64,000 nt of DNA from assembly GCF_009931435.1 (NCBI RefSeq), contig NZ_CP043414.1. One strand, written 5' to 3'. The translations under genes and the position numbers were made by a program. Source of the DNA: Escherichia coli (GTDB taxonomy: Bacteria > Pseudomonadota > Gammaproteobacteria > Enterobacterales > Enterobacteriaceae). The notes under the pieces were generated by a model, which was not told the origin of the DNA, ran no database searches, and saw nothing but the letters and a program-made list of their open reading frames with translations. The first letter of the stretch is position 1. Every line of letters starts with the position of its first letter. This document shows, one piece after another, positions 11,404 through 57,287 of this stretch.

Positions 11404-11412
11404 GGAGGAACA

Positions 11413-17899: not shown

Positions 17900-17997
17900 T
17901 ACGTTCTCCTTCAAATGTGTTCGGAGAGAGAATAGAACTTTATGATTGGTTCCAGTATCCTGCTTTCAATGTACTCAATGGTTAGCGGCATTAAACA

Positions 17998-18897
17998 ATG
18001 AAAATCGATCTTAATCTTTTACCCATTTTTATCGCGGTAGCAGAAGAGAGTAATTTCAGTAAAGCCGCCGCACGACTGGGCGTTACCCGTTCAGCGGTCA
18101 GTCAGGGAATAAGACGTCTTGAAGATGCATTCGGGACAATGCTTGTAATGCGGACCACGCGCTCAGTTAATTTGACGGAAGCGGGAGAACGGCTGCATAA
18201 ATCGTTGTCATTACCTTTATCCGGTATTGAGGCAGCGTTCGAAGAGATGGTCTCTGACCATGTACCACGTGGACATCTCAGAATCGCGGTGACGTCGATA
18301 GCAGAAGAATTTCTTTCAGGTCCGCTAATCGCTTCGTTTGCAGCTGCCAATCCAGCCGTTACGCTTGATATTGTTGTCACGGATGAGGAATTCGATATCG
18401 TTGCCGCAGGTTACGATGCTGGCGTAAGGCTCGGAGAGGTCATTGAAAAAGACATGATTGCTGTTCCCCTTACCGGTAAGCAGCGTGAGATGGTCGTTGC
18501 CTCTCCCTCCTATCTCGCAGCCAACAGCACACCTGTTCATCCGCGCGAACTTGTGAATCATAAGTGTATCGGCTGGCGTCAGTCCCCGGAGGTTGCGCCT
18601 TATCGCTGGCCATTTGAAGAAAACGGTAGAGCTTTCGACCTTGCGATTGAACCGCAGATTACGACGAATGATCTGCGTCTGATGTTGAGGCTGGCTCTTG
18701 CCGGCGGAGGAATAACAATTGCCACTCAGGAAACGTTCAGGCCATATATTGAAAGCGGTAAGCTTGTATCGCTGCTTGATGACTTTCTTCCACAATTTCC
18801 GGGCTTCTATCTGTATTTCCCACAGCGTCGCAATATTGCACCAAAGCTCCGCGCCCTGATTGACCACGTCAAGGAATGGCGGCAGCAATTGGCTTAA
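17998..18897 (+). CDS. LysR-family transcriptional regulator
   Basis: 299 aa, HTH near N-terminus (FSKAAARLGVTRSAVSQGIRRLE); divergently transcribed from the SDR gene. Confidence 0.8.
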   Translation: MKIDLNLLPIFIAVAEESNFSKAAARLGVTRSAVSQGIRRLEDAFGTMLVMRTTRSVNLTEAGERLHKSLSLPLSGIEAAFEEMVSDHVPRGHLRIAVTSIAEEFLSGPLIASFAAANPAVTLDIVVTDEEFDIVAAGYDAGVRLGEVIEKDMIAVPLTGKQREMVVASPSYLAANSTPVHPRELVNHKCIGWRQSPEVAPYRWPFEENGRAFDLAIEPQITTNDLRLMLRLALAGGGITIATQETFRPYIESGKLVSLLDDFLPQFPGFYLYFPQRRNIAPKLRALIDHVKEWRQQLA

Positions 18898-19024
18898 ATG
18901 TCTGCACCTGCACTGCCTGATGTCAGAACAGTATTTTGAGAAATTGCCAGGGTTACAATGGCACAAATACGGCACAGGAGGAAAACGTGGTGTAATTGAA
19001 TGTGAGGTAACTTATTGATTTAAA

Positions 19025-19100
19025 TGGTGCCGATAATAGGAGTCGAACCTACGACCTTCGCATTACGAATGCGCTGCTCTACCAACTGAGCTATATCGGC
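19025..19100 (-). tRNA. thrW: tRNA-Thr (anticodon CGU)
   Basis: Reverse complement reads GCCGATATAGCTCAGTTGGTAGAGCAGCGCATTCGTAATGCGAAGGTCGTAGGTTCGACTCCTATTATCGGCACCA: 76 nt, cloverleaf arms, anticodon loop TTCGTAA, 3' CCA; downstream of proA as thrW is in E. coli. Confidence 0.9.
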
Positions 19101-37777: not shown

Positions 37778-37978
37778 GAGGATATCCTTCAGCATAAATG
37801 TAATAGACAAAATGCAGTGTACCGGATACCGCCAAAAGCGAGAAGTACGGGCAGGTGCGATGACCAGGACTTTTTGACCTGAAGTGCGGATAAAAACAGC
37901 AACAATGTGAGCTTTGTTGTAATTATATTGTAAACACATTGCTAAATGTTTTTACATCCACTACAACCATATCATCAC

Positions 37979-37995
37979 AAGTGGTCAGACCTCCT
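37979..37995 (+). promoter_or_regulatory. Candidate FadR operator upstream of fadE
   Basis: AAGTGGTCAGACCTCCT resembles the FadR consensus AACTGGTCNGACCTGTT; about 20 nt upstream of the fadE start. Confidence 0.45.
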
Positions 37996-38016
37996 ACAAG
38001 TAAGGGGCTTTTCGTT

Positions 38017-40461
38017 ATGATGATTTTGAGTATTCTCGCTACGGTTGTCCTGCTCGGCGCGTTGTTCTATCACCGCGTGAGCTTATTTATCAGCAGTCTG
38101 ATTTTGCTCGCCTGGACAGCCGCCCTCGGCGTCGCTGGTCTGTGGTCGGCGTGGGTACTGGTGCCTCTGGCCATTATCCTCGTACCGTTTAACTTTGCGC
38201 CTATGCGTAAGTCGATGATTTCCGCACCGGTATTTCGCGGTTTCCGTAAGGTGATGCCGCCAATGTCGCGCACTGAAAAAGAAGCGATTGATGCAGGCAC
38301 TACCTGGTGGGAAGGCGACTTGTTCCAGGGTAAGCCGGACTGGAAAAAGCTGCATAACTATCCGCAGCCGCGCCTGACCGCTGAAGAGCAAGCGTTTCTC
38401 GACGGCCCGGTAGAAGAAGCCTGCCGGATGGCGAATGATTTCCAGATTACTCATGAGCTGGCGGATCTGCCGCCGGAGTTGTGGGCGTACCTTAAAGAGC
38501 ATCGCTTCTTCGCGATGATCATCAAAAAAGAGTACGGCGGGCTGGAGTTCTCGGCTTATGCCCAATCTCGTGTGCTGCAAAAACTCTCCGGCGTGAGCGG
38601 GATCCTGGCGATTACCGTCGGCGTGCCGAACTCATTAGGCCCGGGCGAGCTGCTGCAACATTACGGCACTGACGAGCAGAAAAATCACTATCTGCCGCGT
38701 CTGGCGCGTGGTCAGGAGATCCCTTGCTTTGCACTGACCAGCCCGGAAGCGGGTTCCGATGCGGGCGCGATTCCGGATACCGGGATTGTCTGCATGGGCG
38801 AGTGGCAGGGCCAGCAGGTGCTGGGGATGCGACTGACCTGGAACAAACGCTACATTACGCTCGCGCCAATTGCGACCGTGCTTGGGCTGGCGTTTAAACT
38901 TTCCGACCCGGAAAAACTGCTGGGTGGCGCAGAAGATTTAGGCATTACCTGTGCACTTATCCCGACCACCACGCCAGGCGTGGAAATTGGTCGTCGCCAC
39001 TTCCCGCTGAACGTACCGTTCCAGAACGGACCGACGCGAGGTAAAGATGTCTTCGTACCGATCGACTACATTATCGGCGGACCAAAAATGGCCGGGCAAG
39101 GCTGGCGGATGCTGGTGGAGTGTCTCTCCGTGGGGCGCGGCATCACCCTACCTTCCAACTCAACCGGCGGCGTGAAGTCGGTGGCGCTGGCAACGGGCGC
39201 GTATGCGCACATTCGCCGTCAGTTCAAAATCTCTATCGGTAAGATGGAAGGGATTGAAGAGCCGCTGGCGCGTATTGCCGGTAATGCCTACGTGATGGAT
39301 GCTGCGGCATCGCTGATTACCTACGGCATTATGCTCGGTGAAAAACCTGCCGTGCTGTCGGCTATCGTTAAGTATCACTGTACCCACCGTGGGCAGCAGT
39401 CGATTATTGATGCGATGGATATCACCGGGGGTAAAGGCATTATGCTCGGTCAGAGCAACTTCCTGGCACGAGCTTACCAGGGCGCACCGATTGCCATCAC
39501 CGTTGAAGGGGCCAACATTCTGACCCGCAGCATGATGATCTTCGGTCAGGGAGCGATTCGTTGCCATCCGTACGTGCTGGAAGAGATGGAAGCGGCGAAG
39601 AACAATGACGTAAACGCGTTCGATAAACTGCTGTTCAAACATATCGGTCACGTCGGTAGCAACAAAGTTCGCAGCTTCTGGCTGGGCCTGACGCGCGGTT
39701 TAACCAGCAGCACGCCAACCGGCGATGCCACTAAACGCTACTATCAGCACCTGAACCGCCTGAGCGCCAACCTCGCCCTGCTTTCTGATGTCTCGATGGC
39801 TGTGCTGGGCGGCAGCCTGAAACGTCGCGAGCGTATCTCGGCACGTCTGGGGGATATTTTAAGCCAGCTTTACCTCGCCTCTGCCGTTCTGAAGCGTTAT
39901 GACGACGAAGGCCGTAATGAAGCCGACCTGCCGCTGGTGCACTGGGGCGTACAGGATGCGCTGTATCAGGCAGAGCAGGCGATGGACGATTTACTGCAAA
40001 ACTTCCCGAACCGCGTGGTTGCCGGGCTTCTGAATGTGGTGATCTTCCCGACCGGACGTCATTATCTGGCACCGTCTGACAAGCTGGATCATAAGGTGGC
40101 GAAGATTTTACAAGTGCCGAACGCCACCCGTTCACGTATTGGTCGCGGTCAGTACCTGACCCCGAGCGAGCATAACCCGGTTGGTTTACTGGAAGAGGCG
40201 CTGGTGGATGTGATTGCCGCCGACCCAATTCATCAGCGGATCTGTAAAGAGCTGGGTAAAAACCTGCCGTTTACCCGTCTGGATGAACTGGCGCATAACG
40301 CGCTGGCGAAGGGGCTGATTGATAAAGATGAAGCCGCTATTCTTGTGAAAGCTGAAGAAAGCCGTCTGCGCAGTATTAATGTTGATGACTTTGATCCGGA
40401 AGAGCTGGCGACGAAGCCGGTAAAGTTGCCGGAGAAAGTGCGGAAAGTTGAAGCCGCATAA
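38017..40461 (+). CDS. fadE: FadE, acyl-CoA dehydrogenase
   Basis: Track ORF 37939-40461; FadE is 814 aa starting [21 protein letters not shown], start at 38017 with AAGGGG SD. Confidence 0.95.
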
Positions 40462-40503: not shown

Positions 40504-40977
40504 TTATTTAAAATTAAAGCCATCCGGATGGTTTTCCAGGCTGCCGGTCAACGCCGCGAACAGCACCGTTTTACCATCAATAGAAAGCGCATCGTTCACA
40601 TTCAACCAGGTGAGTTTCTCTTGCGACGTTTTCTCATCAATGGTCGAGAACAGCCCCGTCATCTGATTAGATTTCTCGGACCACATCACAGCGATACGTT
40701 GCGAGCCACAGTCATGCGGTTTGCACGCGCTCATCACCTGATACGTCTCATCTCCCAACGTTACGGTTTGTGCAGGGGTATAAGTCCCGCCTTTCATCAC
40801 CCAGGCAGGCAGCTTATGCCCTTGTACCATCTGATTAAATGCAGCTTTGGTGGTTTCGCCCTTTGCAAGGCTGCTAATGGTTAAATCATCCTGCGCCATT
40901 GCACTGGTGGCGATGACCAGAGCGGCGACTGTCGTTATTGCCTTAAACATCATTCCTCCCGAGCTTATCCTGCCCAT
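40504..40977 (-). CDS. ivy: Ivy, inhibitor of vertebrate lysozyme
   Basis: 157 aa with signal peptide, recognised as Ivy (…DDLTISSLAKGETTKAAFNQMVQGHKLPAWV…CKPHDCGSQ…). Confidence 0.9.
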   Translation of the reverse strand: MGRISSGGMMFKAITTVAALVIATSAMAQDDLTISSLAKGETTKAAFNQMVQGHKLPAWVMKGGTYTPAQTVTLGDETYQVMSACKPHDCGSQRIAVMWSEKSNQMTGLFSTIDEKTSQEKLTWLNVNDALSIDGKTVLFAALTGSLENHPDGFNFK

Positions 40978-41130
40978 GTTATTAACCTCCTAAAGCCTGG
41001 CGATAACACGATAATTTGCAAATCAGATATTTCCAATATCAGCATTTGTTATCAATTTATTCTGCGCTAAGGCAACTGCCTGATAAGGTGTTAGAGTTAT
41101 AAAACCCTTCACATAAAGGAGTTGTACACC

Positions 41131-41901
41131 GTGCCTGGTTTGAAGATTACGCTTTTGCAGCAACCACTGGTGTGGATGGATGGTCCTGCCAACCTGCGCC
41201 ATTTTGATCGTCAACTAGAAGGTATTACCGGGCGCGATGTGATCGTTCTACCGGAGATGTTTACCAGCGGCTTTGCCATGGAAGCGGCCGCTTCGTCGCT
41301 AGCACAAGATGACGTAGTGAACTGGATGACAGCCAAAGCGCAGCAGTGCAATGCGTTGATTGCAGGCAGTGTTGCATTACAAACGGAGTCTGGTACGGTT
41401 AACCGCTTTTTGCTGGTTGAACCGGGCGGCACGGTACATTTTTATGATAAGCGTCATCTGTTCCGAATGGCAGATGAGCATCTGCATTATAAAGCGGGCA
41501 ATGCGCGAGTGATTGTGGAATGGCGCGGCTGGCGTATTTTGCCGCTGGTGTGCTACGACTTACGTTTTCCAGTGTGGTCGCGCAATCTCAACAATTATGA
41601 CCTCGCCATCTACGTCGCCAACTGGCCTGCACCGCGCTCTCTGCACTGGCAGGCATTGCTGACAGCCCGCGCGATTGAGAATCAGGCGTATGTGGCGGGA
41701 TGCAATCGCGTCGGCAGCGATGGCAACGGCTGCCATTATCGCGGTGACAGCCGGGTGATTAATCCACAGGGCGAGATTATCGCTACTGCCGACGCGCATC
41801 AGGCAACGCGCATTGATGCGGAGCTGTCGATGGCGGTGTTAAGGGAATATAGAGAAAAGTTTCCGGCATGGCGGGATGCGGATGAGTTTAGGTTGTGGTG
41901 A
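41131..41901 (+). CDS. yafV: YafV, omega-amidase (nitrilase superfamily)
   Basis: Track ORF starts at TTG 41122; YafV begins (V/M)PGLKITLLQQPLVWMDG, so GTG at 41131 with AAGGAG SD 9 nt upstream; nitrilase-family Cys (ILPLVCYDLRFP). Confidence 0.85.
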   Translation: MPGLKITLLQQPLVWMDGPANLRHFDRQLEGITGRDVIVLPEMFTSGFAMEAAASSLAQDDVVNWMTAKAQQCNALIAGSVALQTESGTVNRFLLVEPGGTVHFYDKRHLFRMADEHLHYKAGNARVIVEWRGWRILPLVCYDLRFPVWSRNLNNYDLAIYVANWPAPRSLHWQALLTARAIENQAYVAGCNRVGSDGNGCHYRGDSRVINPQGEIIATADAHQATRIDAELSMAVLREYREKFPAWRDADEFRLW

Positions 41902-42029
41902 GTGGGGGTTGTGTTTAGGGCCGGGGAGAGTTGGGGTATGACTACGAAAGCCCGCTCTCCTGCGACCACTTTTATCATAGGAGTGTGGAAGTGCTTTTCC
42001 ATCAATCGCGATGACGTCTCAGGGAAAGA

Positions 42030-43103
42030 TTACGAAAGCCCGCTCCCCGCAAGGACTGACGCCAGATACTTTCTGTCCATGGCTGCTTTTCGCATCTTAC
42101 GTCTTAACCCTGCCTTGAATACCTTATCATTCGTCAAAATATTAATTGCGATGTGCCGTATCCCTGAAAATAATTCTGCTGCATTTCCTCTTCTTATTTT
42201 GCAGTCGTCTTCATTCATTACCACGTCCAGACGCCAGTGCAGCTTATTCTCCACGTGCCAGTGGTTTCGGATTGCTGTGGCGAACTTCTCTGCGGTTAAA
42301 TCAGCAGAACTGATATAATATCTGACCGTCATTTCTGGCTCTTTCTTTTGTTCTGCTATTATTGACCGAAAGGAGACTGCCACGCATAATTTCTTCAGAC
42401 CTTTCCATTCAAACGTGAAATCAATAAGTTCATCAGGGACATCGCAAACAATGTGAAGACGGATTTCTTCTCTGCCGTGACTCTTTTCACTAATTGCGTA
42501 ACTGTCATGCTCTGGATTATTTAATTCTTTCAGCGGAAATTTTTCCTCGAAGCCTTTATTTAGCCGCCCCTGGTTTCCTTTTACAGCGAATAAATAATCA
42601 CCTCCCTGTTTTTGTATCTTCTCTGCAATATCTTTCTGGCAACCCATCGCATCAGTTGTGATGATTTTTCCTTTAATATCCAGCATGTTAAGAAGTTCTG
42701 GGATAGCTGTAATCTCATTGGATTTCTCATCCGTCTTGATCTGTCCGATGACCAGACTGTGCATTGTTGAGAACGCACTAATGACATGAATCGCTCCCCT
42801 GCGGCGACTCTTGTCATAAGAGTGCCGGAGCGTTTTTCCATCAATTGCAATGACGCCTTTATCATCTGAAGAATGGCAGTCACGCATCCAGTTAATAAAG
42901 CACTCGTGAAATTTTGCAGGACTGATACAGGATACAACTCTGGCAATGGTATCGTGAACAGGAATACCATTTTCAAAATCACCATATTGCTTCAAAAAAT
43001 CGAGATGTGTTTCCCCAAAATCCTCTATATCTTCCCAACCTTCTGCACCCGAAATAACGGCGCAAATAGTCAACAGTAGAATATCCGATAATTTATGTTC
43101 CAC
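42030..43103 (-). mobile_element. ISAs1-family (H-repeat-associated) transposase, intact ORF
   Basis: 357-aa ORF recognised as H-repeat/ISAs1 transposase ([39 protein letters not shown]...); lies next to the Rhs genes. Element ends (inverted repeats) not determined. Confidence 0.8.
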
Positions 43104-43310
43104 TTTCTAGGCTTGTCTGTAATCGGGGATAATAGAAATATGTTCCATCAATTTTTTAAGTTCCATTTTGTTCTCCTTAATTATGTAAGGAGTATTTGAT
43201 CATGTATAAGCAATAAAAAACAGCTTCAGGTAATGAGGAATATCTCAATTTTTAAACATAAAATGCGAATTGTTTAGTACAAAAAAGCAGCGTTACGTGA
43301 TCTTTCCCTG

Positions 43311-43414
43311 CCAGCCCCTCCGGGTTGACCTGCTCCGTCACCCGCAGAACCCTGCACAATATCCAGTCCCTTGCAGGTCATGTCACCCTGCCGCGCCGCC
43401 GGTTTTCCGCTCAT
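43311..43414 (-). pseudogene. Orphan Rhs 5' fragment (Rhs upstream region + first 22 codons fused to a short internal Rhs piece)
   Basis: Minus strand 43414 down to 43345 near-identical to the Rhs2 start ([13 protein letters not shown][C][11 protein letters not shown]) and preceded by the same upstream sequence (CATGGTTTATTCCT); 43344-43311 matches an internal Rhs segment (…[11 protein letters not shown]…) read out of frame; stop soon after. Confidence 0.55.
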
Positions 43415-43546
43415 GGTTTATTCCTTTTCTTTTACCTTACATGGCCATACAAATAGTTACCTATACTGTCTTTGAATATTGCCCTATCATTTAAAGCCCA
43501 CCTAATTTTTGCGACAGCAAAGGGATTTCTTTTTTAATCCAATCTA

Positions 43547-43939
43547 TCATTTCATTTTTTTAAAACATACGTTAATGCCATTCACACTTCCACATTCACC
43601 AAAAGCATCAAAATAAATTTCACATTTATTGTTGCCTTTCGAAATGATGCTAACCCCCCATCTTATATTGTTATATTTTTCTTTTCTGAAATACTTCATT
43701 TGCAATAAATCAATTATCTTACCCGCATAGAGATCGCTAAGTTCATTCACCACCACTTTATATCTGTATATTTCATTAAGACCTTCCTTGCTAAGCGGAA
43801 CTAACGTGGTAACATACGATGGAAGATTAACTACCTCTATCGTTTTCACGCTATCTATTCCACACAATTCATTCACTCGCCCCATCCCCAATACCGAACC
43901 AGAAAATAGAGACAATAAAACCATCAAATATTTCATCAT
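43547..43939 (-). CDS. Putative secreted immunity protein for the Rhs2 C-terminal toxin
   Basis: Track ORF starts at GTG 43951, overlapping the Rhs2 stop; ATG at 43939 has a GAGG SD. Sec signal peptide (MMKYLMVLLSLFSGSVLG), about 130 aa, AT-rich, immediately 3' of the Rhs2 toxin domain. No recognised family. Confidence 0.55.
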   Translation of the reverse strand: MMKYLMVLLSLFSGSVLGMGRVNELCGIDSVKTIEVVNLPSYVTTLVPLSKEGLNEIYRYKVVVNELSDLYAGKIIDLLQMKYFRKEKYNNIRWGVSIISKGNNKCEIYFDAFGECGSVNGINVCFKKMK

Positions 43940-43950
43940 AAAAAACCTCA

Positions 43951-46900
43951 CTATTCTGGCGTACCCGTTATTGTCATCGTCTGCAACGGTCCATCCACCC
44001 GATAAAAAGGCAGTCCACTATGAGCTCCTCTGACACACTCATCTAAAGTTTTCGCCGCACGCGATTCAATTATTGTAATAACCCTTGCCTCTTCTTTATT
44101 ATCATATTTCTTATCCGTCCGACTTAAAAGAGCCATGAAATTTTCTTTATCAAGAAGGTAATACTGTGCATGTGCAAACTCATGCCCCAAACCTAATGCA
44201 GGCGATTGTGATTTCGAGTTTAATTCAGTTGAACAAAATAAAGACGCTCTACTATTCCAATATATCGTCATATTATTCGAATTAAATCTACCATTGGTTC
44301 CTTCAATATACTCTATATTTATAGTTTCTTCAGAGCTTGATAAAAAATCTATAGCATCTTTCATTCGTGAATCTTTTTCTAAATACTTAACAGCCTGATT
44401 AAAATCACTTGGATCACCATTAACCTCGAATTTTAAACCCAAAGAATCTATAAACCGAACAGGGTTTAATGGATATTTATACAGATTCCATTCACCTCTT
44501 AGCCCGATTGGATCCTGCGTGATATACCTCCCCTGCAACGGGTCATAGTACCGGTGACGGTTGTAGTACAGCCCCGACTCCTCATCATACTGCTGCCCTG
44601 GCAGACGGTACGGCTGTTGCAGGTGCTCCGGGTTTTCCTCTCCCAGCAGGTTTCCCCACTCGTCATACTCCCCGCGCCACGCCGTTTCCCCTTCCGGGCT
44701 GATAAGCGCCTGCGGCAGCCCACGGTGGTCACAGTGGTAAAGATGAAGTTTCCTCTCCGGGATGTATTCTTCCTCCATCTGGTTGTTCATCTGTTCCGCC
44801 GTCAGCCCGCACTGCGCAAGCCATGCTTCACTCTCCGCACTCACCGCACCCGCGCGCAGTTCCCGCTCCAGCCTCCCCAGCATCACCGACAGCTCCGCCG
44901 GGAGCGTCACACCCGTGTCCTCCTGCAACACCTCCGCCAGGCTACGGTGCCGCGCCTTCGCCTGTTCGCCATTCTCTGTTTCGATTCTCAGGAGCGGCGT
45001 GAAGCTTCCCGGCTGATAAATCGTCTGGATACGTGTGGTGCCGGTCTGTACCGTCGTCAGCCTGTCACCGTCCCACCCGTACCATGTCTCCTCCGGTTTA
45101 CGCGACAGCGACATCCATCCCGTCAGGTCACGCTCCCGCCGCCACACCCGTTTTCCCGTCCTGCGGCCCAGCGGGTCGTAAAGGTAGCGGCTCTCCACCT
45201 GCGGCTCGCCGTGCTGTATCCGCGTGTAGAACACCAGACGGTGCTGGCTGTCGTAATGGTAGTGGTGGGTGCGCTCGTCGTGCATCCGTATCACCCCTTC
45301 CGGGATACGGTCCGTCTTCTCCGCCAGCCTGCCGTATTCATCGTGGCGGTAGACATAGTGCGCATCTTCCGCGATGCGGTTATCCGGCCACGCCGTGAAG
45401 GTGCTGTCCGGGTGCAGTTCCGGGTCCGGCAGCCGGTTTCCTGCCGGGTCCGTCGCATACGGGATATCAATGTCCAGGTTCGCTGCCGTGGTGTGGACGC
45501 CCGTCAGCCTTCCCGTGTCGCTGTAACGGTACTCCCGGCTCTCCTGCGGGCCGCTGATACGCACCAGTTGCCCGTTATCATTCCACGTATACTCACGGTC
45601 AAGCTGCGGAAGGTTCAGGTGCCTGCTCCGGAGCTGGCCTGTGAGGGTGTATGTGCTGGTCAGTTCATATGCGGCATTACTGCCTGCCATGCTGCCGAAG
45701 CTGCGCACCGTCTCACGGTGCAGCCTGTCCCGCGTGTACTCGACCAGCGGCGTTCCGCCCAGCTTCATCCCCGCAAGATAACCGCTGCCATACGTCAGCC
45801 ACTCCACCGGCGGCAGACCGTCCGGCTCCTGACGGGTCGCCAGCCCCTGTTCGCTGTACGCGTGCCCCGTCTCATGCTCCCACAGCATCTCCCCCGTCTC
45901 CGGGTTCTCCACCGTCTGCCGTTCGCCCGTCAGGCGGCCCTTATCGTCATAGCCGTAGTGGACCGCCACACGGTGGCCTTCACTGGTATGGCTGAGGGTG
46001 GTTAACCACCCGTGCTCATCATACTGCCACTGCTCTGCCGCTTCGCCGTTCACCGTCCGGTGCGTGATGCGGTCCGACGCATCGTAGTGCCAGAGGGTGA
46101 TAAGTCCCTCGTCTTCACTGCGGACAAGCTGCCCTGTGGCGCTGTACCGGTAACGCTGTGTCCGTCCGTCAAAGCCGCGCTGCTCCGTCAGGCGGTCCAC
46201 CGGGTCATACAGGAACGTGGACTGGCTGCCGTTCTCATTAGTCAGCGTGGTGATGCGCCCGGCGGCGTCATACCCCATGCTGCGCGTCAGACCGCCCTGC
46301 GTGGTGCTGATAGCTTTACCCCACGCATCATACTGTGTCTCACTGCGGCTGCCGTTCGGGGCAATGATAGCGGTGAGGTCGCCTGCGGCGCTGTACTCAT
46401 AACGGGTTTCACGCCCCTGCACATCCTTCTGACTGACCAGTTGACCACGCGGGTTATAACTGCTGTAAGTGCTGATGCCTTCTTCCCGGTGAACCGCCGT
46501 CCTCTGCCCGTACCGGTCGTACTCATACCGTGTCGTGTACCCCGAGCAGTCCGTGAAGGCCAGCAGTTGACCGTAGCGGCTCCATGCCATCTGTTTTGTA
46601 CTGCCCGTCGCATCCTGTATCCCTGTCGGCAGCTCACTCGCCGGGTCATCATAGCTGTACCGCGTCGTCTCACCGCTGCGCGAGGTCTCCGCCGCCAGCC
46701 TTCCCTTCTCATCATACTCCCGGCTGCTGCGAAGCCCGTCCGGGTACGTCACTGACGTCACCTGCCGCTGGCTGTTGTAGCCATACCGCACCGTCCTGCC
46801 GTCCGGCCCCGTCACCGCCGTCACCGCGCCCGACGCCATATGCAGGCTGTACTCCGTCCGCCGCCCCGCCGCATCCGTCTGCGCCTTCAGCCTCCCCGCC

Positions 46901-48207
46901 GCATCATACTCGCTGCGGGTGATGCTCCCGTCCGCATGCTCCTTCTTCACCACCCGCTTCAGGCCACCCTCGCCTTCCGTGTACAGCACCTCCCGCCTGT
47001 TCAGGCTGTCCGTGATGGTCACACGGTCCTGCCCGTACTCAAAGCGGTAGGCCAGCCCCTCCGGGTTGACCTGCTCCGTCACCCGACCGGTATCATCATA
47101 CCGGTAGCGGCTCTCCGGCCTCCCCGCATAATGGTGCGCCACCATCCGCCCGGCGTGCTCCGCATCATAAGTAAACCCGCGCACCTGCGTCCCGCTGCGG
47201 TCATACACCGCCAGCAACTCACCGCTGGCCGTGTACGTGTAGCGCGCCAGCGGCGCAGTCGGCTGTTCATCCGGGTATGCCGGGTCGTGTGTCAGCCACA
47301 CCGCCTCCAGCCGGATACCGTTATCGGCACCGTATTCTGTACCGGCGGGCAGCGTGTCGGGGAAAACCTGAGAAGAGGAAACAGAACGGGGACCGGCAGG
47401 GGAAGATAAAGACGTGGCGCGCTGTTTACGGCAGGCTTCCGCCCGCTGCGCCTGCGTGCTCAGCAACAGGTGAAAACGACGGCCCGCACCGTCCGTCCCC
47501 CCCGTCACCGCGCCCGCCACGTCACCCTCCGCTGCCCGGTGAAAGGCCAGCGTCCGACCAAAGCCATCCACCACGCCCGTCAGCACCCGGTATGCGGGCG
47601 GTTCCGGCGGCAGCACCTCGTCCGCCCCCGGCACCCGCTCCGGCCAGCTGAGTATCCACCACGGCCCCTGAAGGCTGTTTGTCGCCAGGTACACATGCGG
47701 ACTCAGGCGAACATCTTCCGGCAGCACCTGCCAGAGCGCGCTTAGCGGCTGCGAACTGTGCTGCTCCGCCCCCCCGCCCCGCGCCAGCCAGAACGACTCG
47801 CTGCGGCTGTAGCTTATCTCGCCGGGAAACAGCGGCTCAAAGTGAATGCTCCTGCCGCCGTTGTCGTTGAGTATCAGTTCCCGCTCATGAACCTGTAAGC
47901 GGATATCGAAGGGCGCTTTCCAGCCGGGGCCGAACACGCCCACCGGCGCGGGCGTCCTGGTCCGGTAACTGCTGTAAGCGCGGGAAAGAATAAACGGCAG
48001 CGGGCCGGGCAGTGCCAGGTCCGTCTCGCCCGGCAGCACCTTCGCACCCAGCACCGGGTTCACCGGGTTAGCATAGGTAATCCCTCCCGGACACACCGAG
48101 CAGGCCACTCCCGTCGGCGCACCTATCAGCACCCCTGCTGAACCCTGCACAATATCCAGTCCCTTGCGGGTCATGTCGCCCTGCCGCGCCGCCGGTTTTC
48201 CGCTCAT
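43951..48207 (-). CDS. PAAR-Rhs polymorphic toxin (Rhs2), HExxH-containing C-terminal domain
   Basis: 1418 aa; N-terminus carries a literal PAAR motif ([13 protein letters not shown]...GSAGVLIG); long YD-repeat core; core ends [27 protein letters not shown]; last about 160 aa unique, with HEFAH. Confidence 0.9.
44497..47450. repeat. Rhs core direct repeat, copy A (paired with 50623-53580)
   Basis: Track shows identical 483-aa antisense ORFs at 44554-46005 and 50680-52131, so at least 1.45 kb is nucleotide-identical between the two Rhs genes; flanking core highly similar with scattered substitutions. Outer boundaries approximate. Confidence 0.8.
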
Positions 48208-48330
48208 GGTTTATTCCTCTTCCTCTGAATAAACTTATTTTTGATGCACTAATGATTTTCAAAAGAGATTTATATTTAACGACAATTCAGCACTTTTAAT
48301 GTAAAAGATCCCCGGCTGAATGATATTCAC

Positions 48331-49323
48331 TCATTGTTTGTTATCAGAAAGTGTTTTATACAGCGGCACATATCCCACGTCTTCCACAAGACTTTGCCCC
48401 TGAGGGCTTAAAAACCAGTCCACTAGTTTTTGTGTTTCCGGTGTCGGCTTTTCGCGGGTGACCATGTAGGCATCCACCACATACGGATAAGTACCGTTGC
48501 GGATATTCTCCACCGTTGGTGCAATACCATTTATTGCCAGCAGCTTAAGATTTGGGCTTATATCCTTATTCATCTGTGTGACATAATAGCGGAAGGTGTA
48601 ACCAATTGAAGGCTGCGTATTCCGGTAGGCAATTACTTTGGTTAACACTCCATTCATAAGGCTTACTTCTGTAGATGTTCTGGCGGGTAGCATCGGTGTC
48701 TCTTTCATCACCTTTGCCAGCATCACCGTCTGGCTACCGGAATCTTCCGGACGCTGCCAGACCTGAATGCGCTCATCACTGCCACCAACCTGACTCCAGC
48801 GGGTGATTTTACCGCTGAAGATATCCCGAACCTGCTGTTCAGTAAAAGAACTGACCGGATTACTGGCGTTAACGATAAAAACAAAGGCTTCGTGGGCGAA
48901 GGGGGTATAAACCAGTTTCACCCCGGCATCGGCAGCCCGTTGTTTTTGTCCTGCGGAAGGCTGGGCAACAAAAATAACATCGGCCTGGCGCTTTATGAGA
49001 TCATTATAGGCTTCTGGTGTACGAGTCGGATACATATAATTCAAACCCGGATCTTGATGGTTATCCCCGGGGATCAAATATCGGTAAGCTGAAGCATACA
49101 GTGGATATAACGCGGTTGCACCACATACCCGGGGCCATTTATTCGAGTTATCAGTGTAGCGTAAAGTGGGTTCTCCTCGTATATTGGTTTTCTCCCAACT
49201 CACTGTTTCTTTTACGCTGTTATCGCCCCCGCCGTCTACACATCCTGACATTAATACCGTCATATAAAATAATACTGGTAACAGGCCCACCCTACGCATA
49301 CAATGATTTAATAAATACGCCAT
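48331..49323 (-). CDS. PstS-like (phosphate-binding-protein fold) putative lipoprotein, orphan
   Basis: Track ORF 48331-49365; start placed at ATG 49323 (GAGG SD 5-6 nt upstream) giving MAYLLNHCMRRVGLLPVLFYMTVLMSGC with lipobox-like LMSGC; PstS-like motifs (VIFVAQPSAGQ..., FTEQQVRDIFSGKITRWSQVGGSDERIQVW); no ABC transporter genes nearby. Confidence 0.55.
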   Translation of the reverse strand: MAYLLNHCMRRVGLLPVLFYMTVLMSGCVDGGGDNSVKETVSWEKTNIRGEPTLRYTDNSNKWPRVCGATALYPLYASAYRYLIPGDNHQDPGLNYMYPTRTPEAYNDLIKRQADVIFVAQPSAGQKQRAADAGVKLVYTPFAHEAFVFIVNASNPVSSFTEQQVRDIFSGKITRWSQVGGSDERIQVWQRPEDSGSQTVMLAKVMKETPMLPARTSTEVSLMNGVLTKVIAYRNTQPSIGYTFRYYVTQMNKDISPNLKLLAINGIAPTVENIRNGTYPYVVDAYMVTREKPTPETQKLVDWFLSPQGQSLVEDVGYVPLYKTLSDNKQ

Positions 49324-49627
49324 ATACCTCACTCTAAAATATTGATTATATAAATACATATGCATAATTATATTTACATCAAATTCTGAATGAACAATTT
49401 AAATTTAGAGAAAGTGAAATTTAATTTTTCGATACTTCCGCATACATATTCCCCTCGCTAAAAAATCATCATTCCACAATCAATCATTAATTACAACTCA
49501 ATATACATCATTTAACTTTCATTAAACTCGCAATTTATTATTACATTGTAGCCATTATGAACTGTCATCACGCACACACTCTACATACACATTAGAAACA
49601 ATATAACCCCATGAGCCATCCTCCGTT

Positions 49628-50074
49628 TCAATACTTAGTGCAGCGTGTCTTAAGGAAATTAGAAGCCACAACATCAATCTTTTCTTTTAAGACTAAATCA
49701 TCCACATAATCACAAGACAAATAGAAGTCATTACCATCGGCCATTATAAATATCCTCATAGGTAAAGATTTATCATTATCAACATGAGCATTCGTAATAA
49801 TCCAATAATAAGGAAATCTAACATTTTTTGTAGGAATACCCAATAAATCATAAGCTTTATTATTATATTCTATCGCTCCCTTAACAAACGTTGGTTTGAC
49901 CTCCTTACCAATAATGCGATGCGACGTATATTCTTCCTTCTCAGCAAACGATTGCATTAATGCCCATATAGGTTTATTTGCCAGCTCACCGTGATGAAAA
50001 ATCCGATAAAAATACACTCCTAAAAAAAATATTAAGCCTAAGCAAACCAATACCATGAGGCAGTTCTTACTCAT
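49628..50074 (-). CDS. Putative membrane-anchored immunity protein for the Rhs1 C-terminal toxin
   Basis: 148 aa; ATGA start/stop overlap with Rhs1; single N-terminal TM helix ([19 protein letters not shown]); AT-rich. No recognised family. Confidence 0.55.
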
Positions 50075-53000
50075 TGATTAAAATCCGTAAAATTAGAAGG
50101 AACAGGGCCATTCTCAGGTGAAAACAATGGAGATGTATTTGATACTCGTGATGCTATCATTTCTACAGTAGCAGGAAGATACATTGGCATTCCATTATCA
50201 CCACCTAGCGGATCAGTTGAAGTTAAAATTTCATTTATTGAATCTACTGAGACTCCCGCATGCAACATTGCCTCAATAACCATTGTTGCACAATTGTGCG
50301 TAAAATAGTTATAGTCACTTCTATCTACTTTATATTTTTCATCAATGTACTTAATCATTGCTTTCTCTTGTTCTGGCGTGGTTTTAATTGTATATATCCT
50401 CGTGCTTCTACGTTGTGCTTGTTCAGTTAAATAAGCTATGACACTCCCTCCACGTGGGGTAGCGGTTCCATAGCTATATACCCCTTTTCCAGTAAATGCC
50501 ATCGCAGAATGCCCTAATGGATTACCACTCGTGGGTCCCCCAGCAAAAATAAGGGTATCCAAACCAAGTGGATCTATATTTATAGTTGGATTCCACGGAT
50601 ATTTATAAAGATTCCATCCCCCCGCAAGCCCGATTGGATCCTGCGTGATATACCTCCCCTGCAACGGGTCATAGTACCGGTGACGGTTGTAGTACAGCCC
50701 CGACTCCTCATCATACTGCTGCCCTGGCAGACGGTACGGCTGTTGCAGGTGCTCCGGGTTTTCCTCTCCCAGCAGGTTTCCCCACTCGTCATACTCCCCG
50801 CGCCACGCCGTTTCCCCTTCCGGGCTGATAAGCGCCTGCGGCAGCCCACGGTGGTCACAGTGGTAAAGATGAAGTTTCCTCTCCGGGATGTATTCTTCCT
50901 CCATCTGGTTGTTCATCTGTTCCGCCGTCAGCCCGCACTGCGCAAGCCATGCTTCACTCTCCGCACTCACCGCACCCGCGCGCAGTTCCCGCTCCAGCCT
51001 CCCCAGCATCACCGACAGCTCCGCCGGGAGCGTCACACCCGTGTCCTCCTGCAACACCTCCGCCAGGCTACGGTGCCGCGCCTTCGCCTGTTCGCCATTC
51101 TCTGTTTCGATTCTCAGGAGCGGCGTGAAGCTTCCCGGCTGATAAATCGTCTGGATACGTGTGGTGCCGGTCTGTACCGTCGTCAGCCTGTCACCGTCCC
51201 ACCCGTACCATGTCTCCTCCGGTTTACGCGACAGCGACATCCATCCCGTCAGGTCACGCTCCCGCCGCCACACCCGTTTTCCCGTCCTGCGGCCCAGCGG
51301 GTCGTAAAGGTAGCGGCTCTCCACCTGCGGCTCGCCGTGCTGTATCCGCGTGTAGAACACCAGACGGTGCTGGCTGTCGTAATGGTAGTGGTGGGTGCGC
51401 TCGTCGTGCATCCGTATCACCCCTTCCGGGATACGGTCCGTCTTCTCCGCCAGCCTGCCGTATTCATCGTGGCGGTAGACATAGTGCGCATCTTCCGCGA
51501 TGCGGTTATCCGGCCACGCCGTGAAGGTGCTGTCCGGGTGCAGTTCCGGGTCCGGCAGCCGGTTTCCTGCCGGGTCCGTCGCATACGGGATATCAATGTC
51601 CAGGTTCGCTGCCGTGGTGTGGACGCCCGTCAGCCTTCCCGTGTCGCTGTAACGGTACTCCCGGCTCTCCTGCGGGCCGCTGATACGCACCAGTTGCCCG
51701 TTATCATTCCACGTATACTCACGGTCAAGCTGCGGAAGGTTCAGGTGCCTGCTCCGGAGCTGGCCTGTGAGGGTGTATGTGCTGGTCAGTTCATATGCGG
51801 CATTACTGCCTGCCATGCTGCCGAAGCTGCGCACCGTCTCACGGTGCAGCCTGTCCCGCGTGTACTCGACCAGCGGCGTTCCGCCCAGCTTCATCCCCGC
51901 AAGATAACCGCTGCCATACGTCAGCCACTCCACCGGCGGCAGACCGTCCGGCTCCTGACGGGTCGCCAGCCCCTGTTCGCTGTACGCGTGCCCCGTCTCA
52001 TGCTCCCACAGCATCTCCCCCGTCTCCGGGTTCTCCACCGTCTGCCGTTCGCCCGTCAGGCGGCCCTTATCGTCATAGCCGTAGTGGACCGCCACACGGT
52101 GGCCTTCACTGGTATGGCTGAGGGTGGTTAACCACCCGTGCTCATCATACTGCCACTGCTCTGCCGCTTCGCCGTTCACCGTCCGGTGCGTGATGCGGTC
52201 CGACGTATCGTAGTGCCAGAGGGTGATAAGCCCCTCGTCTTCACTGCGGACAAGCTGCCCTGCGGCGCTGTACCGGTAACGCTGTGTCCTGCCATCAAAG
52301 CCGCGCTGCTCCGTCAGGCGGTCCAGCACATCATAGGTAAACTCACTCCGGCTGCCGTTCTCGTTGGTCAGCACGGTGATGCGCCCGGCGGCGTCATACC
52401 CCATGCTGCGCGTCAGCCCGCCCTGCGTGGTGCTGACGGCCTTTCCCCACGCATCATACTGTGTCTCACTGCGGCTGCCGTCCGGGGCAATGATAGCGGT
52501 GAGGTCGCCTGCGGCGCTGTACTCATAACGGGTTTCACGCCCCTGCACATCCTTCTGACTGACCAGTTGACCACGCGGGTTATAACTGCTGTAAGTGCTG
52601 ATGCCTTCTTCCCGGTGAACCGCCGTCCTCTGCCCGTACCGGTCGTACTCATACCGTGTCGTGTACCCCGAGCAGTCCGTGAAGGCCAGCAGTTGACCGT
52701 AGCGGCTCCATGCCATCTGTTTTGTACTGCCCGTCGCATCCTGTATCCCTGTCGGCAGCTCACTCGCCGGGTCATCATAGCTGTACCGCGTCGTCTCACC
52801 GCTGCGTGAGGTCTCCGCCGCCAGCCTTCCCTTCTCGTCATACTCCCGGCTGCTGCGCAGCCCGTCCGGGTACGTCACTGACGTCACCTGCCGCTGGCTG
52901 TTGTAGCCATACCGCACCGTCCTGCCGTCCGGCCCCGTCACCGCCGTCACCGCGCCCGACGCCATATGTATCCGGTACTCCGTCCGCCGTCCCGCCGCAT

Positions 53001-54342
53001 CCGTCTGCGCCTTCAGCCTCCCCGCCTCATCATACCCGCTGCGGGTGATGCTCCCGTCCGCATGCTCCTTCTTCACCACACGCTTCAGGCCACCCTCGCC
53101 CTCCGTGTACAGCACCTCCCGCCTGTTCAGGCTGTCCGTGATGGTCACACGGTCCTGCCCGTACTCAAAGCGGTAGTCCAGTCCCTCCGGGTTGACCTGC
53201 TCCGTCACCCGCCCGGTATCATCATACCGGTAGCGGCTCTCCGGCCTCCCCGCATAATGGTGCGCCACCATCCGCCCGGCGTGCTCCGCATCATAAGTAA
53301 ACCCGCGCACCTGCGTCCCGCTGCGGTCATACACCGCCAGCAACTCACCGCTGGCCGTGTACGTGTAGCGCGCCAGCGGCGCAGTCGGCTGTTCATCCGG
53401 GTATGCCGGGTCGTGTGTCAGCCACACCGCCTCCAGACGGATACCGTTATCGGCACCGTATTCTGTACCGGCGGGCAGCGTGTCGGGGAAAACCTGAGAA
53501 GAGGAAACAGAACGGGGACCGGCAGGGGAAGATAAAGACGTGGCGCGCTGTTTACGGAAGGCTTCCGCCCGCTGCGCCTGCGTGCTCAGCAACAGGTGAA
53601 AACGACGGCCCGCACCGTCCGTCACCCCCGTCACCGCGCCCGCCACGTCACCCTCTGCCACCCGGTGGAAAGTCATCGTCCGACCAAAGCCATCCACCAC
53701 GCCCGTCAGTACCCGGTATGCGGGTGGCTCCGGCGGCAGCACCTCGTCCACTTCCGGCACCCGCTCCGGCCAGCCGAGCACCAGCCACTGCCCGGTTGTG
53801 CTGACAGCCATCATATAGGTGTGTGGACTCAGGCGGACCGCTTCCGGCAGCGCCCGCCAGAACCGCGCAAGCGGGTGTCCTTTATGCTGTTTCAGCACCC
53901 CGCCCCGCGCCAGCCAGAACGACTCGCTGCGGCTGTAGCTTATCTCGCCGGGAAACAGGGGTTCAAAGTGGATGCTCCGGCCACCGCTGTCGTTAAGTAT
54001 CAGTTCACGCTCACAAATCTGTAAGCGGATGTCGGAGGGGGCTTTCCAGCCGGGGCCGAATATCCCCACCGGGGCTGGCGTCTTCGTCCGGTAACTGCTG
54101 TAGGCGCGGAAAAGGATGAACGGCAACGGGCCGGATAGTGCCAGGTCGGTTTCAGCAGGCAGTACCTTCGCTCCCAGCAGCGGGTTTACCGGATTGCCAT
54201 ATTTCGGCGTGGCTTCCCCTGTGGGACACACCGAGCAGGCAACCCCCGTCGGCGCACCTATCAGCACCCCTGCTGAACCCTGCACAATATCCAGTCCCTT
54301 GCGGGTCATGTCACCCTGCCGCGCCGCCGGTTTTCCGCCCAT
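50071..54342 (-). CDS. PAAR-Rhs polymorphic toxin (Rhs1), His/Cys-containing C-terminal domain
   Basis: 1423 aa; PAAR motif at N-terminus ([13 protein letters not shown]...); YD-repeat core; core ends [27 protein letters not shown]; last about 162 aa unique (…[11 protein letters not shown]…[11 protein letters not shown]…); GAAGGA SD; 75 nt downstream of vgrG. Confidence 0.9.
50623..53580. repeat. Rhs core direct repeat, copy B (paired with 44497-47450)
   Basis: See copy A; same orientation, about 6.1 kb apart. Confidence 0.8.
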
Positions 54343-56768: not shown

Positions 56769-57287
56769 TTATGCTTCCAGCGGTGCGCGCCAGTCGTCGG
56801 CACCGGAGGTGCCAGATTTGACGTGTTCCCACTCAATCTTGCGGTAGGCCAGTGAAACTTCGAGCAACTGGGTGAACTCGCGTTTCGCCGGGTCCTGGCA
56901 ATGCGGCATATGCAGTTTCATATCGACAATCGTCGAATCAGTCAGGCGGGTGGTGAAATAATGCTCCTGTTTGCCTTCCACAGATGTACGCCACCAGTGC
57001 AGTTCAGTGGTTGGCAGCATTTCACCGGAGGCCAGTGCGTTGTACATCAGCGGAACCGCTTTGTTCAGCGCCACGGTAAAAATGAACGGCTTGTGAGCAC
57101 GCTGACCCGCAGGCTGACCGGACTGAGGATCGGTCGGGACAGTAACGTTATGCAGGAATTCCTGCACCAGCATCTCGTCTTCGTGCCCCTGCACATAGAT
57201 GTTGCCGACAGAATCAGCGGTAAATGCACCTGCAGTAATATTTCCCTGGGTCTGACCAGTGATGGAGATATAACACGGTGTTGGCAT
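56769..57287 (-). CDS. hcp: Hcp (TssD) tube protein
   Basis: 172 aa, Hcp1-family sequence (MPTPCYISITGQTQGNITAGAFTADSVGNIYVQGHEDEMLVQEF...); directly upstream of vgrG. Confidence 0.85.
   Translation of the reverse strand: MPTPCYISITGQTQGNITAGAFTADSVGNIYVQGHEDEMLVQEFLHNVTVPTDPQSGQPAGQRAHKPFIFTVALNKAVPLMYNALASGEMLPTTELHWWRTSVEGKQEHYFTTRLTDSTIVDMKLHMPHCQDPAKREFTQLLEVSLAYRKIEWEHVKSGTSGADDWRAPLEA

Follow-up and report, generated by a model that had tools for sequence, protein, structure and literature searches.

A probable ISEc1 pseudogene and an older H-repeat relic beside yafV, at the distal end of a T6SS-linked Rhs array in Escherichia coli

The ISEc1 or H-repeat (H-rpt) elements of Escherichia coli Rhs loci, such as yhhI, ydcC and ybfL/ybfD in K-12, are 1291 bp long, carry one 378-codon DDE frame (1134 nt before the stop) between CAGGGAAAGAT termini, and follow Rhs toxin and immunity modules on their downstream side. 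The same figures of 1291 bp and 1134 bp were reportedly given for the H-rpt by Zhao et al. 1993 (J Bacteriol 175:2799), who are also said to have described K-12 yafF as a 291-bp H-rpt fragment near minute 5. Scars made of H-rpts in tandem, with truncations and internal deletions, are well known in genomes and have already been described at RhsC of K-12 (ybfQ / ybfL / ybfD), where three tandem copies comprise positions 1-381, positions 1-1291, and positions 21-911 joined to 1225-1281. More distantly, ISAs1 from Aeromonas salmonicida, the prototype of the family, shares the same NCBIfam equivalog and Pfam domain pair and is a distant family relative, likened here by profile matches; it transposes experimentally. 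For H-rpt, in contrast, PMC3032704 states with reference to Zhao et al. 1993 that no experiment has shown transposition, and a mobilome preprint (10.1101/2024.07.17.603846) contains no ISAs1 activity data.

Here, we describe a related locus within a 64-kb stretch of E. coli DNA (64,000 nt, hereafter the window), in which VgrG, Rhs, Rhs, an Rhs relic, ISEc1, an old H-rpt relic and yafV follow one another. Together they form a composite scar where a T6SS-linked Rhs array comes to its distal end. Specifically, we consider it about 85% probable that it consists of a complete ISEc1 whose transposase gene is knocked out at codon 20, with a relic of an older H-rpt lineage at one end and an Rhs relic, without a target duplication (TSD), at the other. 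The design is that of K-12 RhsC: at both loci a truncated neighbor in direct orientation adjoins a complete IS end, and a large internal part is missing from one of the copies. The window locus differs in lying on the yafV side of a T6SS-linked array, in its breakpoints (453-519 joined to 1263-1291) and in its truncated partner, which belongs to a lineage ~20% diverged; for the copies of K-12, identity to ISEc1 is 88-96%. Compared with the ISEc1/H-rpt elements of Rhs loci in general, it is set apart by the amber codon, the lack of a TSD and the relics at both ends. The features are as follows, with the basis of each in brackets.

41122..41901, plus strand: yafV (2-oxoglutaramate amidase), conserved chromosomal flank (ORF list; RefSeq annotation of homologous loci)
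41932..42019, minus strand: 88-bp old H-rpt relic, ISEc1 positions 453-519 joined to 1263-1291 (repeats D1 and D2)
41932..41960, minus strand: outer end of the old H-rpt (degenerate IRR' and last codons), homologue of 42020-42048 (repeat D2)
41953..42019, minus strand: internal segment of the old H-rpt (transposase codons ~84-105), homologue of 42792-42858 (repeat D1)
41953..41960, no strand assigned: 8-nt microhomology at the 751-bp deletion joint (overlap of the two homology blocks)
42020..43310, minus strand: complete ISEc1 / H-rpt of the ISAs1 family, 1291 bp (terminal repeats and exact CAGGGAAAGAT termini)
42020..42044, no strand assigned: IRR, terminal inverted repeat at the transposase 3' end (25-nt arm of inverted repeat)
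43286..43310, no strand assigned: IRL, terminal inverted repeat upstream of the transposase gene (25-nt arm of inverted repeat)
42030..43166, minus strand: canonical 378-codon transposase frame with its terminal stop, interrupted (translation MELKKLMEHISIIPDYRQA*KVEHK...)
43107..43109, minus strand: premature amber codon W20*, TGG to TAG (translation and strain comparison)
42030..43103, minus strand: residual 357-aa ORF, GTG start at canonical codon 22 (ORF list)
43311..43429, minus strand: relic of a third Rhs gene abutting IRL (identity to the Rhs genes in the window)

A sequence-only reading of this DNA had left the element boundaries undefined and proposed to define inverted repeats and target duplications by alignment to ISAs1/ISEc1 references. 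The ends can be fixed at 42020 and 43310. Imperfect terminal arms of 25 nt, 80% complementary and spaced 1241 nt, delimit the element; IRL and IRR are identical in their first 11 nt, and exact CAGGGAAAGAT termini stand at 42020 (+) and 43310 (-). The resulting 1291 bp agree with the bounding inverted repeats and ~1.2-1.3 kb size of the ISAs1 family. Over positions 1-1291 the window copy is 99.0-99.6% identical to copies at unrelated chromosomal sites in other genomes, named 'ISAs1-like element ISEc1 family transposase' by PGAP; with the full-length copy of K-12 RhsC, identity is 96.2%. The isoform assignment was made through these PGAP-named copies and the RhsC copy. In a separate comparison of ISEc1 copies across E. 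coli, identity to the window copy ranges from 95.6 to 99.6% (divergence 0.4-4.4%). One of the copies at unrelated sites, between wzzB and ugd and 99.3% identical, has the same ends flanked by a 10-bp direct repeat, CCCTGATAAC, which is single-copy in K-12 and represents the empty site. Both observations confirm the boundaries and indicate that target duplication holds for elements of the ISEc1 type. At the window copy there is none, as the flanks ...gatgacgtct and ccagcccctc differ, and the duplication was either lost or never made; none was found at the four Rhs-linked ISEc1 copies checked.

The 88-bp relic has the orientation of ISEc1. Its outer end lies 30 bp beyond the yafV stop codon, and its other end is cut off flush at the outermost base of the ISEc1 IRR. 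Homology to an H-rpt, in an internal segment as well as at the terminal end, co-linear and in the same orientation, marks it as an H-rpt/ISAs1-family remnant; with only one degenerate end, it lacks the two terminal inverted repeats of a MITE-like element. Its terminal part forms repeat D2 (41934-41960 against 42022-42048; 27 nt, 85% identical, spacing 88 bp). Inside D2 lies TACGAAAGCCCGCTC, a motif noticed twice in the sequence-only reading. The 64-kb window indeed has two occurrences and no more, one at 41943 and one at 42031, against a chance expectation of 0.01. The two homology blocks of the relic overlap in a microhomology that reads CGCTCTCC in the relic and CGCTCCCC in ISEc1, at 42041-42048 and 42792-42799. 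These CGCTCYCC repeats are spaced 751 bp in an intact element, and the old copy has lost 751 bp internally between them, with 8 nt of microhomology at the joint. The IRL side of the old H-rpt is missing in the window as well as in D8, O18 and LP5-1, and a blastn search of the 64 kb revealed no H-rpt copies besides ISEc1 and the relic.

Comparison with other strains shows that the relic and its deletion joint are common to O18, LP5-1, D8 and 2020CK-00188. In O18 and LP5-1 no ISEc1 directly abuts the relic, which extends further there, with ~200 bp at 82-84% identity to ISEc1 covering positions 323-519. In D8-type genomes, the old copy comprises positions 110-519 and the same old-type terminal end, and it abuts a full ISEc1; blastn reports the 110-519 block alone in D8, and the terminal end comes from a separate sequence comparison. 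Such a tandem of ISEc1 and a longer old copy also occurs in E. coli C and ATCC 8739 and, with an old copy 343 bp longer than the window relic, in ~115 genomes. The relic/ISEc1 region was covered in 117 genomes, and among the matches listed 59 of 60 were in two pieces, as in D8. A 70-nt probe across the relic/IRR junction of the window, in turn, gave a one-piece match in only one of 5,426 genomes. D8 and the window share no homology at the breakpoint; their ISEc1 copies are 95.6% identical (1236/1293) and differ in the IRL flanks. The D8 old copy is itself a mosaic, old-type to ~20 nt past the window breakpoint and ISEc1-type thereafter. In K-12 and 2014C-3011, the old-type end is joined directly to an ISEc1-type body, and exactly the 88 bp between the D2 repeats are missing. 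K-12 has only a fragment here according to the sequence-only reading, and this holds: yafF, an annotated pseudogene, occupies the same position by yafV with the same old-type outer end ...GGGGTATTACTACGAAAGCCCGCTC..., and is a 291-bp hybrid of old end and ISEc1 body with homology to ISEc1 1001-1291. Compared with the window, the 88 bp that separate the repeated 3' ends are absent from the yafF locus, which has neither Rhs nor T6SS cluster.

On the other side, IRL abuts a relic in which the start region and ~24 codons of an Rhs gene (43341-43429, 94% identical to 48134-48222) are joined, with a change of frame, to an Rhs core piece of 34 nt (43311-43344, 100% identical to 47052-47085). The core piece encodes a peptide of 11 residues, and no donor with an ISEc1 in the Rhs core at the site of this peptide was found other than 2020CK-00188, which is structured as the window. 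The IRL/Rhs junction, too, occurs in only one of 5,426 genomes. What adjoins IRL varies among strains: Rhs core codon ~385 in the window, Rhs codon 14 in 2014C-3011, whereas D8 has unrelated DNA there. IRR adjoins an old H-rpt cut at 453 in the window and at 110 in D8-type genomes. A 46-aa ORF is listed at 43274..43414, across the IRL/Rhs junction.

The available data are compatible with a model in which an old, internally deleted H-rpt first adjoined yafV, a state that O18 and LP5-1 would have kept, and an ISEc1 was next placed beside it, giving the tandem found in D8, E. coli C and ATCC 8739. In the window lineage, an event flush with the IS end and without junctional homology would then have removed the DNA from IRR to old-copy position 452/453. 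Elsewhere, the repeated 3' ends of 27 nt may have recombined and so fused the old end to an ISEc1 body, as seen in 2014C-3011, and further truncation may have produced the 291-bp yafF of K-12. The order of these events derives from a handful of genomes rather than from a phylogeny. The most likely flush event is a transposase-mediated adjacent deletion, i.e., intramolecular transposition from IRR, to which we give slightly less than an even chance; ISEc1 is not known to make adjacent deletions. Since the window ISEc1 is only 95.6% identical to that of D8 and has another IRL flank, one simple step from the sampled D8-type arrangement does not suffice to derive the locus. Either in addition or instead, one has to assume an independent insertion or an exchange of the IS body by recombination. 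A broader reading is that ISEc1/H-rpt is naturally active and repeatedly trims the distal ends of Rhs arrays by adjacent deletions flush with the IS end. It is allowed by the intact ends that abut different truncated neighbors in different strains, and by the missing TSD at four Rhs-linked copies where a non-Rhs site has a clean 10-bp one, and we regard it as tentative and rather doubtful.

The flush junction could also be explained by insertion of ISEc1 into the old H-rpt at 452/453, followed by loss of the other target half and the duplication on the IRL side. This would explain the intact IRR set flush on old-copy sequence without homology, the 95.6% identity to the ISEc1 of the D8-type tandem and the abutment at 453 here versus 110 in D8, and the window variant appears mobile in nature, given its 10-bp TSD at wzzB-ugd. 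However, beyond IRL there is no old-copy 1-452 and no TSD, but an Rhs relic, which means that at least one extra flush deletion is required and that the insertion is not simpler than an adjacent deletion. We consider it possible, if somewhat unlikely. The sequence-only reading had spoken of nested or recombined copies, and part of this stands, in that two H-repeat copies are juxtaposed and rearranged. Nesting probably does not apply: the Rhs relic, and the lack of a second half of the old copy, past the other IS end argue for a tandem with truncation.

A further possibility is that homologous recombination or gene conversion among H-rpts made the whole arrangement without any transposase. The mosaic old copy of D8 fits such exchange, and the hybrids of K-12 and 2014C-3011 are the exact products that a crossover between the two 27-nt copies of D2 would yield. 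The locus is, moreover, itself a recombination mosaic, as indicated by its comparison with 2020CK-00188, in which yafV is 1.9% and the IS 0.4% different. Recombination of this kind does not, however, predict the relic/IRR and IRL/Rhs junctions, both of which fall at the terminal base of the IS without homology to the deleted sequence, and as a complete explanation we judge it improbable.

The transposase gene of the window ISEc1 had been described as intact, a view that the canonical frame does not uphold. Its start lies at 43166, 63 nt upstream of the start of the 357-aa ORF, and the intact 378-aa proteins that 2020CK-00188 and D8 encode run co-linear with it. The single uninterrupted 378-codon ORF of ISEc1 is not found here, as codon 20 is TAG and the 357-aa product is the GTG-initiated remainder. 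The amber is a single-base difference, at 43108, from the intact 2020CK-00188 copy (99.6% identical, same locus), and the same TAG allele occurs in an O157 RhsC-linked copy, which PGAP annotates with an 'internal stop'. The gene is knocked out by this TGG to TAG change, although in principle an error of sequencing might have brought the TAG into the source assembly. What had been read correctly is the 357-aa ISAs1-family H-repeat ORF as such. It matches the equivalog NF033564 (E = 2.1e-124; 415 bits, where the cutoff is 70; model 1-314/314), PF01609 (E = 3e-30) and PF13808 (E = 1e-27), and thus encodes a transposase of the ISAs1 DDE type.

This invites the question whether the shortened protein works, for instance through termination and reinitiation at TAG-AAA-GTG, leaving the element autonomous. 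It covers the NCBIfam ISAs1 model as well as the DDE domain in full, its GTG lies 3 nt past the stop, and what remains is only 3 residues off the intact protein of the neighbor strain. Against this, it lacks 21 residues and 16 of the 88 positions of the conserved N-terminal DDE_Tnp_1_assoc domain (PF13808 is covered at 17-88/88, and at 2-88/88 once W20 is restored), and no Shine-Dalgarno-like sequence before the GTG is visible on reading the sequence. The intact copies examined (2020CK-00188 and D8), moreover, encode 378 aa, and PGAP treats the TAG allele as a pseudogene. Independent nonsense alleles exist at the locus, such as W93* in 2014C-3011, and indicate relaxed selection. We therefore regard a working short transposase as quite improbable, and the window ISEc1 is most likely unable to move on its own; having kept both ends, it could in principle be mobilized in trans if the genome has an intact ISEc1 at another site. 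As such, the element is to be annotated as an ISEc1 pseudogene with an internal stop and ends at 42020 and 43310.

The sequence beside yafV had been taken for a diverged copy of an internal segment of the same gene at about 80% identity, and the degree of similarity is borne out by repeat D1 (41953-42019 against 42792-42858; 67 nt ungapped, 53/67 or 79% identical). The two segments are clearly homologous, in the same orientation and 839 bp apart, as a duplication or internal rearrangement within the window ISEc1 would have it. The origin is nevertheless a different one, with self-duplication very improbable. The 21% divergence stands against 0.4-4.4% among ISEc1 copies across E. coli, and the identical relic and joint recur in O18 and LP5-1, which have no abutting ISEc1 and where the sequence extends further in diverged form. 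On this comparison, the relic belongs to an older H-rpt lineage, ~20% diverged and separate from ISEc1. A full-length living member of this lineage was sought by a search of distant sequences with the O18 relic, in which matches at other loci reached at most 93% identity among the matches listed. Its 88 bp by yafV should accordingly not be annotated as part of ISEc1 but as an older H-rpt relic. Chance, the outcome that the sequence-only reading had named as its refutation, is dismissed by a local alignment score of 64 against 18.0 +/- 2.1 (maximum 26) in 500 dinucleotide-preserving shuffles (z ~22), by blastn E values of 1e-10 to 1e-11 within the window and by conservation of the relic across strains.

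The findings have little importance beyond annotation. The locus illustrates how a T6SS-linked Rhs array decays, combining tandem IS copies, deletion at a microhomology, truncation flush with an IS end and recombination between IS ends, and it would account for the origin of the K-12 pseudogene yafF. The 99.3% identical copy with its 10-bp TSD provides modest evidence for ISEc1 transposition in nature. The signs of movement are indirect, in that nearly identical copies of full length occupy unrelated loci and a TSD flanks one of them.

Other scans added little. An Rfam scan of 38-50 kb found no RNA families. Between 41.7 and 43.7 kb, promoter-like sites (7 versus 4.1 +/- 2.4 expected) and terminator-like sites (2 versus 1.4 +/- 1.2 expected) were not above chance, and no regulatory role is therefore given to the relic. 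The window contains 11 CAGGGAAAGAT-like 11-mers with at most one mismatch, against 0.8 expected; as candidate solo IS ends they were rejected, since none extends past the 11-mer (5-12 of 29 further positions match), and the excess is attributed to composition or codon effects. A 138-aa plus-strand ORF at 41902..42318 runs antisense to the IS, overlaps the relic and was treated as spurious.

The element at 42020-43310 (minus strand) is the H-rpt of Rhs elements, ISEc1 (ISAs1 family), complete but inactivated by a nonsense mutation and adjoining a relic of an older H-rpt lineage that has undergone a microhomology deletion. Both of its ends lie flush against unrelated truncated sequences, and a target duplication is absent (flanks gatgacgtct and ccagcccctc). 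The boundaries, which a sequence-only reading had left undefined, are set by an imperfect inverted repeat of 25 nt (80% complementary; IRR, 42020-42044, at the 3' end of the transposase gene, versus IRL, 43286-43310, upstream) and by exact termini: the first 11 nt, CAGGGAAAGAT, are the same at both ends (42020 on the plus strand, 43310 on the minus strand), and the element therefore measures 1291 bp. Full-length copies at unrelated chromosomal sites of other E. coli, several of them named ISEc1 by PGAP, are 99.0-99.6% identical over positions 1-1291. In the wzzB-ugd intergenic region of strain Z0117EC0005 (L010 1491-2801), an ISEc1 of 99.3% identity sits between direct repeats of the 10-bp sequence CCCTGATAAC, of which the uninterrupted K-12 region (the empty site, L012) has a single copy. 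This copy is a textbook simple insertion and provides independent confirmation of the ISEc1 ends. It interrupts the hairpin CAGGGCgtaaataGCCCTG in its 3' arm. The hairpin arms are similar to the IS termini (CAGGG...CCCTG), a possible sign that IS-end-like sequences are preferred as targets.

Features of the region (coordinates, strand where assigned, identity; fadE, ivy and yafV from ORFs and RefSeq annotation of homologous loci).
19025-19100, tRNA-Thr(CGU), thrW
37939-40461, fadE, left of the element
40504-40977, minus, ivy
41122-41901, yafV, directly left of the relic and ISEc1
41932-41960, outer end of the old H-rpt relic, equivalent to the last 29 nt of H-rpt (42020-48 in ISEc1)
41953-42019, internal block of the relic, equivalent to ISEc1 positions 453-519 (42792-42858)
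43311-43429, minus, relic of a third Rhs gene, directly against the IRL
43547-43951, minus, small ORF with the PGAP name 'RHS element protein dsORF-h1', presumably an immunity gene
43951-48207, minus, full-length Rhs gene
48331-49365, PBP-like lipoprotein ORF between the two Rhs modules
49628-50074, minus, small ORF after the Rhs gene at 50071-54342, presumably an immunity gene
50071-54342, minus, full-length Rhs gene
54421-56559, minus, VgrG gene
58.8-63.6 kb, T6SS genes VipB/TssC, TssF and TssG

On the minus strand, the VgrG gene is followed by the two full-length Rhs genes, nearly identical in their cores and different in their C-terminal tips, with a small ORF after each. The flanking genes, yafV on one side and Rhs, VgrG and T6SS genes on the other, therefore place ISEc1 and the relic at the distal end of a T6SS-linked Rhs array, adjoining conserved chromosome. 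At the equivalent position K-12 has only the pseudogene yafF, and the Rhs and T6SS genes are absent; in the E. coli W genome paper (PMC3032704), b0215-b0221 is listed as an Rhs locus occupied in strain W and empty in K-12. On the IRL side, two pieces of the third Rhs gene survive, joined out of frame. One (43341-43429) covers the start and ~24 codons and matches the start of the adjacent Rhs gene at 94% identity; the other is a 34-nt stretch of Rhs core (43311-43344; 11 residues, codons ~375-385) that matches 47052-47085 of the adjacent full-length gene at 100%. This IRL junction occurs in 1 of 5,426 complete E. coli genomes, 2020CK-00188; elsewhere, the IRL neighbour is Rhs codon 14 (2014C-3011) or unrelated DNA (D8). 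Further left lies thrW, used by prophage CP4-6 as its attachment site in K-12. The ~19 kb left of it hold core genes (LysR regulators, pao-like molybdoenzyme genes, the ecp fimbrial operon), and since Pfam, applied to a sample of 10 larger ORFs in 1-19100, shows no integrase or prophage gene among them, the source strain seems to be without a CP4-6-like island.

The transposase gene had been described as an intact 357-aa ORF, but translation from the ATG at 43166 gives MELKKLMEHISIIPDYRQA*KVEHK..., a 378-codon frame with a TAG at codon 20 (43107-43109). The same-locus copy in 2020CK-00188, identical at 1286 of 1291 positions, has TGG at this codon and is annotated as intact (378 aa); the D8 copy is likewise intact at 378 aa. 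The 357-aa ORF (42030..43103, minus), which starts with GTG 3 nt past the TAG, is an ISAs1-family DDE transposase (NF033564, E = 2e-124; also PF01609 and PF13808). It keeps the whole NCBIfam model and lacks 16 of the 88 positions of the N-terminal DDE_Tnp_1_assoc domain, and no ribosome-binding site is visible in the sequence before the GTG. We infer that the gene is a pseudogene, on which low-level reinitiation is conceivable. The TAG allele is shared by the RhsC-linked copy that O157:H7 strains carry (PGAP label 'internal stop'), and a 71-nt probe for this W20 allele matches 180 records at 99% or more. The O157-type copy (E. coli 10671) is ~2.6% diverged from the window copy despite the common TAG, which could reflect either recurrent mutation or a short conversion tract between copies. 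At the yafV locus, 2014C-3011 carries a different nonsense allele, W93*.

The repeat noted downstream of the transposase gene proved real: between 41953-42019 and 42792-42858 there is a gap-free alignment of 67 nt with 79% identity, and the local alignment score is 64 versus 18.0 +/- 2.1 (maximum 26) in 500 dinucleotide-preserving shuffles (z ~22). The motif TACGAAAGCCCGCTC, also correctly read as duplicated, occurs exactly twice in the window (41943 and 42031; chance expectation 0.01) and is the core of a 27-nt repeat with copies 88 bp apart. The two homology blocks of the 88-bp relic (41932-42019) overlap by 8 nt, CGCTCTCC (41953-41960). The intact element has two CGCTCCCC copies 751 bp apart, so the relic is an H-rpt that lost 751 bp through microhomology deletion. 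Contrary to the proposal of a copy of the element's own internal segment, the relic does not derive from the adjacent ISEc1, because the two are ~21% diverged (among the ISEc1 copies compared, divergence is 0.4-4.4%) and because the joint of CGCTCTCC to TGCGAC is identical beside yafV in O18 and LP5-1, without a directly abutting ISEc1. In these strains, the old copy extends over ISEc1 positions 323-519 at 82-84% identity. The copies are recombined, as suggested, and tandem, but not nested.

In the O18/LP5-1 type, the internally deleted old H-rpt stands alone next to yafV. In the D8 type, which includes E. coli C and ATCC 8739, the old copy, made up of positions 110-519 and the terminal end, lies immediately against the IRR of a full-length ISEc1; being ISEc1-like in its 5' part, the old copy is a conversion mosaic. 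The relic/ISEc1 region is covered in 117 genomes, and among the 60 matches listed, 59 are two-piece like D8. The window type resembles D8 with 343 bp less: the old copy breaks off at position 453, exactly against the IRR, and this breakpoint has no junctional homology; a 70-nt junction probe finds a one-piece match in 1 of 5,426 complete genomes, again 2020CK-00188. In the 2014C-3011 type, an ISEc1 body follows immediately on the old outer end, and the missing DNA is exactly the stretch between the 27-nt repeated 3' ends. The 2.5-kb query is covered to 80% or more in 2,806 genomes, most of which, judged from the matches listed, appear to belong here. K-12 has the same hybrid reduced to positions 1001-1291 (yafF), in agreement with the sequence-only reading that only a fragment persists there. 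Zhao et al. are reported to have described, in 1993, a 291-bp H-rpt fragment near minute 5 in K-12, which this remnant matches. In a comparison of 41100-43600, the sole genome with both rare junctions, 2020CK-00188, shows 15 substitutions relative to the window in ~530 bp of yafV (41111-41634) and only 5 in the 1291-bp IS; the ancestry of the locus is therefore mosaic and recombinant.

An event directed by the IS end would have created the relic/IRR junction; the simplest such event is an adjacent deletion (intramolecular transposition) starting from an ISEc1 in tandem or upstream. Otherwise, ISEc1 may have inserted directly into the old copy, whose other half was then lost. The hybrid alleles, yafF included, would be explained by homologous exchange involving the repeated 3' ends. 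The sampled D8 tandem type is not the direct parent of the window arrangement, since the two ISEc1 copies are only 95.6% identical. The architecture is like that of K-12 RhsC, with three tandem H-rpts (1-381, then 1-1291, then 21-911 joined to 1225-1281). There is no departure from the known H-rpt/Rhs picture; the particular allele is rare, and its parts and processes are ordinary. The passage of PMC3032704 that cites Zhao et al. 1993 states that H-rpt transposition has not been observed.

Across the window, 11 11-mers lie within one mismatch of CAGGGAAAGAT, versus 0.8 expected from shuffles. Such sequences at 2462, 14726, 22738, 47397, 53523, 55087-55097, 57238-57248, 59718 and 60234-60244 show no further similarity to the inverted repeats, and the excess is probably a composition or codon effect. 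A second defective H-rpt lies ~1.5-2 kb further in at the yafV locus of O18 (L005 5538-6515) and LP5-1 (L004 6319-7289), adjoining a PAAR-like gene and an 'integrating conjugative element protein'. With positions 1-532 joined to 845-1291 and ~90-93% identity to ISEc1, it is another internally deleted copy, whose joint differs from that of the relic.
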